Assembly: GCA_964016885.1 (NCBI GenBank)
Contig: OZ024758.1
Location: forward strand, 2,728,001 to 2,792,000
DNA: 64,000 nt
Direction: 5' to 3'
Origin: Eledone cirrhosa
Lineage: Eukaryota
Under the pieces are notes generated by a model, which searched no databases, was not told the origin of the DNA, and was given only the letters and a program-made list of their open reading frames with translations. Position 1 is the stretch's first letter. The number at the start of each line of letters is the position of its first letter. Below, in pieces: positions 7,281 through 7,781 of this stretch. A program made the position numbers and the translations under genes.

Positions 7281-7452
7281 CACACACACACACACAGACG
7301 CACACGCACATATATATATATATATATGTAGGAGGTGAGTTTTATTGTAGTACAATAAAGCAATGCAGATATCGGATAAGCACTCTACAGTTTGTAGGAC
7401 TGGAGTATACATAATATATAAGGTCAAAAGATGGTTAAAGGAGTTCCATGTA

Positions 7453-7519
7453 TTTTATTATGCGCATTTCAAAAACAAACATCATCATGCAATAATATTT
7501 GTGTTTTCATCAGATAAAA
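7453..7519 (-). ncRNA. Type I hammerhead ribozyme motif (mirror copy of 7647-7713)
   Basis: Exact reverse complement of the plus-strand motif, in the left arm of the palindrome. Confidence 0.75.
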
Positions 7520-7646
7520 CAGGAGAACATGATATGAAGGCTAAAAAACACTTGTGGATAGTGCAGTTTTAAATCAACATATCATATGTTGATTTAAAAC
7601 TGCACTATCCACAAGTGTTTTTTAGCCTTCATATCATGTTCTCCTG

Positions 7647-7713
7647 TTTTATCTGATGAAAACACAAATATTATTGCATGATGATGTTTGTTTTTGAAAT
7701 GCGCATAATAAAA
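7647..7713 (+). ncRNA. Minimal type I hammerhead ribozyme motif
   Basis: Stem I UUUUAU(7647-52)/AUAAAA(7708-13); CUGAUGA 7653-59; ~15-bp stem II 7660-7695 with one C-U mismatch; GAAA 7696-99; palindromic stem III AUGCGCAU; AUA cleavage triplet, predicted cut after 7707. Confidence 0.8.
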
Positions 7714-7741
7714 TACATGGAACTCCTTTAACCATCTTTTG

Positions 7742-7781
<40 letters not shown>

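Follow-up and report, generated by a model that had tools for sequence, protein, structure and literature searches.

The locus

The window, i.e., the whole stretch of DNA analysed here, comprises 64,000 nucleotides from Eledone cirrhosa and contains a mirror repeat of 339 bases in total, in which two arms of 169 nt (7414-7582 and 7584-7752), 100% complementary and 1 nt apart, turn about C7583, exactly as an initial sequence-only reading had described. That reading had also placed (TA)n on both flanks, where it is seen at 7310-7330 and 7753-7775. The extension of about 80 bp that it had called unique is indeed confined to the left side, but it is not unique, being the 83-bp tail of a Penelope-like element (PLE) that recurs in many other copies. 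The parts of the locus are given below; negative positions are counted back from the tail end (-1) on the unit L060:2888-6442, a scale on which the hammerhead cut lies at -132/-131, the palindrome centre at -255 and the end of the right arm at -87.

7310-7330, no strand: left (TA)n target
7331-7413, minus: PLE tail, 83 bp, on the left arm only, ending at the outer 3' end point (-1)
7380-7406, minus: bulged hairpin A, adjoining the inner end point on its 3' side, with a putative role in priming
7414-7582, minus: left arm, pLTR -87 to -255, continuous with the tail
7451-7521, minus: type I hammerhead motif, a pattern match mirroring the plus copy, predicted cut after 7459
7583, no strand: central C/G, a non-native G before the first base of the left arm (native -256 is C)
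7584-7752, plus: right arm, pLTR -255 to -87, tail-less
7645-7715, plus: type I hammerhead motif, predicted cut after A7707
7753-7775, no strand: right (TA)n target

On the minus strand, positions 7326-7330 read TACAT and coincide with the element's own next five bases, a microhomology with the repeat, while the right arm ends in the element's TATATAT, which merges into the target repeat. At 7581-7586 the central C recreates the native TCATAT ahead of the right arm, and, given an internal promoter, the palindrome centre could work as a back-to-back start site.

A high-depth repeat adjoins the element on its left (7070-7280); its minus strand carries a box B-like motif and it ends in (CA)n, so that it looks like a tRNA-derived SINE, although ARAGORN called no tRNA within the window. 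A second, unrelated hammerhead palindrome, also in (TA)n, is found at 21857-22145, with arms of about 143 bp, a 2-nt spacer, a CUGAGGA core, stem III ACCACUGGU and a one-sided extension to the right; by its sequence it is likely to belong to another PLE family. The palindrome at 7414-7752 is an ordinary locus, the commonest short product of its PLE family.

The hammerhead motif

The hammerhead pattern has two matches in the window, 7653-7706 on the plus strand and 7460-7513 on the minus strand, an outcome obtained in none of 100 shuffles. In the plus copy, stem I pairs 7645-7652 with 7708-7715 (8 bp), CUGAUGA occupies 7653-7659, stem II (7660-7695) has 15 pairs with one C-U mismatch, and GAAA (7696-7699) is followed by the palindromic stem III AUGCGCAU (7699-7706). 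The motif of a type I hammerhead with palindromic stem III on each strand was thus read correctly at the outset, and the predicted cut falls at the same place as before, after 7707. The covariance-type search that had been proposed gave a different outcome: at E ≤ 1, Rfam returned no hammerhead family for the window, only miRNA hairpin look-alikes below the gathering score, and the single-sequence hammerhead fold was not more stable than shuffles (z -1.1).

Across 103 arms, the core C3 U4 G5 A6 N7 G8 A9, G12 A13 A14, A15.1-U16.1, H17 (numbered as in PMC4209133) is intact in 93, and N7 is the only core variant that arms share. Stem III and the 3' side of stem I have no shared variants; in stem II, 8 of 36 columns vary, mostly by one-sided changes that leave the pairs unbroken, against 18 of 90 columns in the flanks, and no two-sided covariation was seen in the stems of these 103 arms. 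Core and stem pairings are therefore kept in other genomic copies and across subfamilies, as the sequence-only reading had anticipated, and this variant pattern, in small numbers, points to selection in source elements. The closing pair, canonically G10.1-C11.1, is A-U in the window and G-U in 15 loci, which may lower the activity of the putative ribozyme.

In a read-through RNA the 169-bp hairpin, at about -278 kcal/mol, far outweighs the hammerhead, at -6 to -9 kcal/mol, so the competition of the two folds that had been suggested is not supported, and the ribozyme would be masked; in terms of the modelled energies, only a transcript starting at the palindrome centre would leave the hammerhead free. 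Both arms cross the cut site, and hence the RNA template of this insertion was presumably left uncleaved although its ribozyme motif is intact. The ribozyme probably serves unit-length or circular RNA for long and tandem copies.

The element family

Matches to the arm occur in at least 53 places (85-100%) of the species' own 3.0-Gb genome, and a 25-mer across the hammerhead has 18,107 exact occurrences genome-wide (reversed control, 0). In longer copies the terminal repeat is followed by a 3' UTR of about 900 nt and then by the ORF, of which a 305-aa piece has 129 scored matches at 94-100%; frames of about 800 aa with a YRDDG motif are present in three loci (L053, L054, L056), and pLTR-ORF-pLTR tandem units in two (L056 and L060). 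The proposed search of the genome for ORF-linked copies thus tied the arm to reverse transcriptase (RT)/endonuclease (EN) ORFs, which upholds the PLE origin of the insertion, but not the idea of a special non-coding element.

The structure predicted for the ORF product (built on 13 sequences, pLDDT 72.6) has five TERT structures as its top Foldseek matches (E 3e-8 to 2e-7, with low TM-scores). Read by eye, the ORF contains RWI, DKT, the CxCx5C linker CNCPIKNKC, CNLC (CxxC) and CLH (CxH), together with a C-terminal endonuclease-like region that has no CCHH motif, and has no N-terminal EN; a GIY-YIG-type motif (LIY...YFG, R, H, E, N), likewise seen by eye, matches the Hydra alignment in the supplement to PMC8557442. 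Pfam gave no useful match for the ORFs of this family, its only GIY-YIG hit being sub-threshold (E 0.008) and for a sister element in L031, and a PDB sequence search with the ORF returned one weak, unrelated match. The Neptune clade, an initial guess, was dropped for Hydra after comparison of clade motifs. The arms are, to judge from motifs read by eye, the pLTR of an abundant Hydra-clade EN+ PLE, and the element of the window is, on the same grounds, an ordinary copy of a new family within that clade.

Some variation within and around the family was also recorded. Residues ~580-655 of the L053 ORF form an Asn/Thr/Ser-rich insert of about 75 aa, predicted to be disordered, between the RT thumb and the EN linker; this insert is missing from P0001-P0010, and Asn-rich inserts have reportedly been described in rotifer Penelope. 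In the neighbourhood of some copies there are other, divergent PLE ORFs that share the CxCx5C endonuclease linker (L031:5702-7425, L038:1-471, L039:7967-8608 and L040:8544-9909). The inverted arm at L060:1839-2616 matches the 3' UTR of the insertion to which it belongs at 99% identity but has lost the polypyrimidine tract by internal deletion.

Architecture of the copies

The arrangement of copies was studied in a local sample of 66 loci around the first 100 matches of the hammerhead 25-mer (contig C1, 0.5-27.2 Mb), plus L056. The 72 groups parsed comprise 56 head-to-head pairs and 16 single-orientation copies, and in 49 of the 56 pairs one arm ends at -1 and the other at about -79 to -95 (the rest being one two-tailed pair, one without a tail and five ambiguous). 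The 3' ends thus fall at two fixed points, -1 and about -87/-79, each used once in an insertion, and at both the element is (TA)n-like (TATATATTATGTATA and TACATTA). The bulged hairpin A at -79 is identical in 44 of 71 copies; a similar hairpin B, at +12, follows the tail in tandem copies and occurs in 10 copies, the window not among them.

Within the 49 pairs, the 5' reach of the tailed arm is shorter than that of its partner in 24, equal in 10 and longer in 10, and in the remaining 5 the arm consists of the tail only, does not overlap the tail-less arm and abuts its start. Partner arms have subfamily variants in common and differ by 2.4% on average (38 pairs including the window), compared with medians of 3-14% to other copies. 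Seven of these 38 pairs, the window included, show no difference at all, some pairs sharing rare variants, so that arm identity is a weak clock, and the "very young" age first attributed to the insertion is plausible but does not follow from its identical arms. Homogenisation of the arms was not significant (for rare variants in common, 7 vs. 20 among tight pairs and 3 vs. 32 among wide ones; P = 0.09). In tandem copies the upstream partial repeats often exceed -255 (L056, L060, L070, L113, L128) and would therefore need a template of more than unit length, such as the circle proposed in PMC4209133.

The turn point at -255

The native sequence upstream of -255 is TTTTC. Counted genome-wide as exact-motif matches, raw and not scaled to motif abundance, 5' ends with two non-native upstream bases number 3,155 at -255, 86 at the hammerhead cut and 52 at a neutral position. 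Symmetric junctions at -255, counted in the same way and irrespective of the arms behind each, amount to about 1,670 (938 sharing ATAT and 729 with spacers of 0-6 nt), and the exact 23-nt centre with a single C/G is found at 276 genomic sites, i.e., 275 besides the window. Two candidates for the cause of this hotspot were rejected: the hammerhead cut as the template end, with 86 ends against 52 in the control, and palindromic microhomology alone, since the stronger 8-bp palindrome of stem III accounts for 40 symmetric junctions against 938.

An arm ending at -252 to -260 meets a longer arm in only 2 of 54 pairs, where 12.8 would be expected by shuffling (P ~1e-5; L123 was placed at -255 by hand, since BLAST runs past centres of this kind; in the two exceptional pairs, L118 and L148, the arms consist of several segments, and their length was used to estimate how far they reach). 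Because arms ending there rarely meet longer ones, the template itself seems to stop at -255. In 11 of the 54 pairs the -255 end is joined to an unrelated shorter partner, and -255 palindromes are present in several subfamilies. The 5' 51 nt of the element fold into a hairpin, and TCATAT, which resembles an initiator, is located at -257 to -252. Transcription starts within pLTRs have been reported for Penelope and Chlamys.

The base at the centre

A G precedes -255 in 2,557 arms genome-wide, where rows with native upstream sequence have C, rarely T. By hand count, the 50 spacer sites listed comprise 25 with a single C/G, one with a single A/T, one with no spacer and 23 with longer spacers, in which the first base is G in 26 of 46 arms and C in 8. 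An extra G opposite the cap is known from other retroelements. The sequence of the junctions makes an addition opposite the RNA cap the modestly favoured source of the central C. Some Gs derive, however, from microhomology with the partner, the single C/G may be the native C of the partner arm, and within the local sample a G is found in only 12 of the 37 arms that break off at -255 (C 13, A 8, T 4). Among the first 100 of the 3,155 non-native -255 ends, 78 have A or T.

A less probable though appreciable source of the C, again to go by the junction sequences, would be a snap-back of the cDNA end onto an internal CATATCATG, which the pLTR carries at -209 to -201; such a fold-back could template C, CA, CAT and CATG, all of which are observed as spacers, and the 5' hairpin could assist the folding. 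Four of the 50 listed spacers (e.g., C1:116567335 and C1:229999410) repeat the last bases of the cDNA, CAAC or CAACAT, a pattern that resembles slippage at the end of the template followed by renewed copying and is reminiscent of telomerase repeat addition.

Origin of the inverted pair

From the end points, the turn point and the pairing of the arms, it is probable that both ends of one target break were primed on the same uncleaved RNA and that both copies ran off its 5' end. The dimeric RT/endonuclease of the element would cut (TA)n, and one DNA end would prime where the tail ends and the other at a site 83-86 nt more internal, each site having immediately on its 3' side a bulged hairpin (A at -79 or B at +12) with a presumed part in the choice of site. 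Both cDNAs would be copied up to the first base of the RNA, probably the capped transcription start at the initiator-like TCATAT, and the two ends would then be joined blunt or via ATAT, leaving a central C that is perhaps cap-derived. The tailed arm is not a fold-back copy, because it is often shorter than its tail-less partner. Some points weigh against the priming of both target ends on one RNA: a common subfamily of the arms would also be expected if two RNAs came from a single locus or if gene conversion followed, and the anole enzyme starts without target homology, unlike the TA microhomology at the ends of this family.

In its general form, namely that PLE inverted repeats are double-primed products of one capped, uncleaved RNA with the G of the cap at the palindrome centre, the proposal is finely balanced and is put forward tentatively. 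If it is true, thousands of insertions map the transcription start of the element to the base, and its RNAs divide into two pools, one capped and uncut, from which the short palindromes arise, and one processed by the ribozyme and probably circular, from which the long and tandem copies arise.

If one source locus supplied two separate RNAs and each target end copied a different one, the two primings, the subfamily match and the exclusion at -255 would be accounted for equally well. The RNAs could, for instance, be short transcripts of the pLTR alone, possibly joined as a dimer by stem III (self-pairing at -10.5 kcal/mol), and the short palindromes would spread SINE-like as a non-autonomous subfamily; the rare variants common to some pairs also fit. 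We nevertheless consider it unlikely, as the 5 of 49 pairs in which a tail-only arm abuts its partner's start are what two primers on one molecule would be expected to give, -255 palindromes are present in several subfamilies, and varied junctions show independent formation.

Self-priming, in which one cDNA or antisense template folds at the short palindrome CATATG and copies itself into an inverted arm, is the published reading of head-to-head junction palindromes in rotifer Penelope (PMC3846280). The identity of the arms, the centre on CATATG, the 938 sites sharing ATAT and the 5' hairpin all fit it, and the tailed arm of the window is the longer one, so that this single locus is compatible with it. 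Yet simple fold-back fails for the 29 of 49 pairs in which the tailed arm is the shorter, because that arm cannot have been copied from the tail-less one; moreover, a 1-nt loop is impossible, the stronger 8-bp palindrome yields so few symmetric junctions, and some -255 ends are joined to shorter arms unrelated to them, which together leave self-priming a decidedly poor prospect.

That the locus is a fold-back artefact of assembly is very improbable, despite the full identity of its arms, given the one-sided tail, the 1-nt centre common to 275 other sites and the divergence of most other pairs. Concerning the reads that had been proposed as a check, raw reads from another study cover the 61-nt centre (15 in X22, 1 in X21, 0 in X23) and X1 contigs cross it without difference; these may derive from any of the 276 like sites and so support the class of junction, while no contig or read record was found across the whole locus plus both flanks, the contigs fragmenting over the repeat. 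That the host keeps the palindrome for a regulatory role, be it as dsRNA or as a ribozyme switch, is scarcely credible. A transcript reading through it would indeed contain a duplex of 169 bp, but its hairpin is favoured over the hammerhead by about 270 kcal/mol, leaving no real switch, and the locus is an unremarkable one among many hundreds of similar insertions.

Significance and comparison with known systems

PLEs are the sister group of telomerase, and two-end priming would explain their inverted copies. The origin of PLE tandem and inverted repeats and the role of the hammerhead are named as open questions in PMC8557442, and the population of this family gives a sharp, testable account of the inverted repeats: its naturally formed products number in the thousands and have fixed ends, its ORFs are nearly intact, and one RNA start and two sites of priming are predicted for it. 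Pairs of hammerheads on opposite strands, as well as inverted pLTRs, tails and Hydra elements, have already been published (PMC4209133, PMC8557442, PMC3846280); a literature search, with most subscription papers outside its reach, turned up nothing on twin priming in PLEs or on junction bases derived from a cap.

With the Hydra clade as it appears in PMC8557442 (e.g., Hydra-1_Obim and Penelope-13_HM, the latter listed with a hammerhead on each strand), the family shares a single ORF with RT followed by a putative GIY-YIG-type EN, the RWx, DKT, CxCx5C, CxxC and CxH motifs, (TA)n targets, a hammerhead in the pLTR and an inverted 5'-truncated copy. It differs in its unit of about 3.6 kb (most Hydra elements are below 3 kb), its tail of 83 bp instead of 30-40 bp, its hammerhead, which in contrast to that of Hydra-1_Obim has a long stem II and an even palindromic stem III, its Asn-rich insert of about 75 aa before the EN linker and its copy number of at least 18,107 hammerheads.

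The minimal hammerheads of PLEs (PMC4209133) are likewise of type I, with palindromic stem III and long stem II, and located in pLTRs; in Schistosoma, dual hammerheads are found 100-700 bp apart on opposite strands, and circular RNA has been proposed for PLE hammerheads. The motif of the window has no bulge after position 9 and has A10.1-U11.1 (G-U in older subfamilies) in place of G-C. In Poseidon_Ac, an anole PLE of another clade, both strands were cut and extended in vitro, RT starts at two internal sites flanking the tail, and hammerhead cleavage is dispensable (PMC11167929); its starts need no target homology, whereas the family of the window ends at TA-like microhomologies.

Animal non-LTR retrozymes (bioRxiv 10.64898/2026.07.22.740005) resemble the locus in being non-coding and pLTR-related and in carrying a type I hammerhead, but they are head-to-tail tandems, whereas the locus has a head-to-head pair and no tandem. 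The Penelope of Adineta (PMC3846280) shares head-to-head pLTRs, junction palindromes, an optional tail and an initiator-like pLTR motif. There the arrangement is explained by self-priming on an antisense template; for the family described here the data argue against that reading and favour two separately primed cDNAs.
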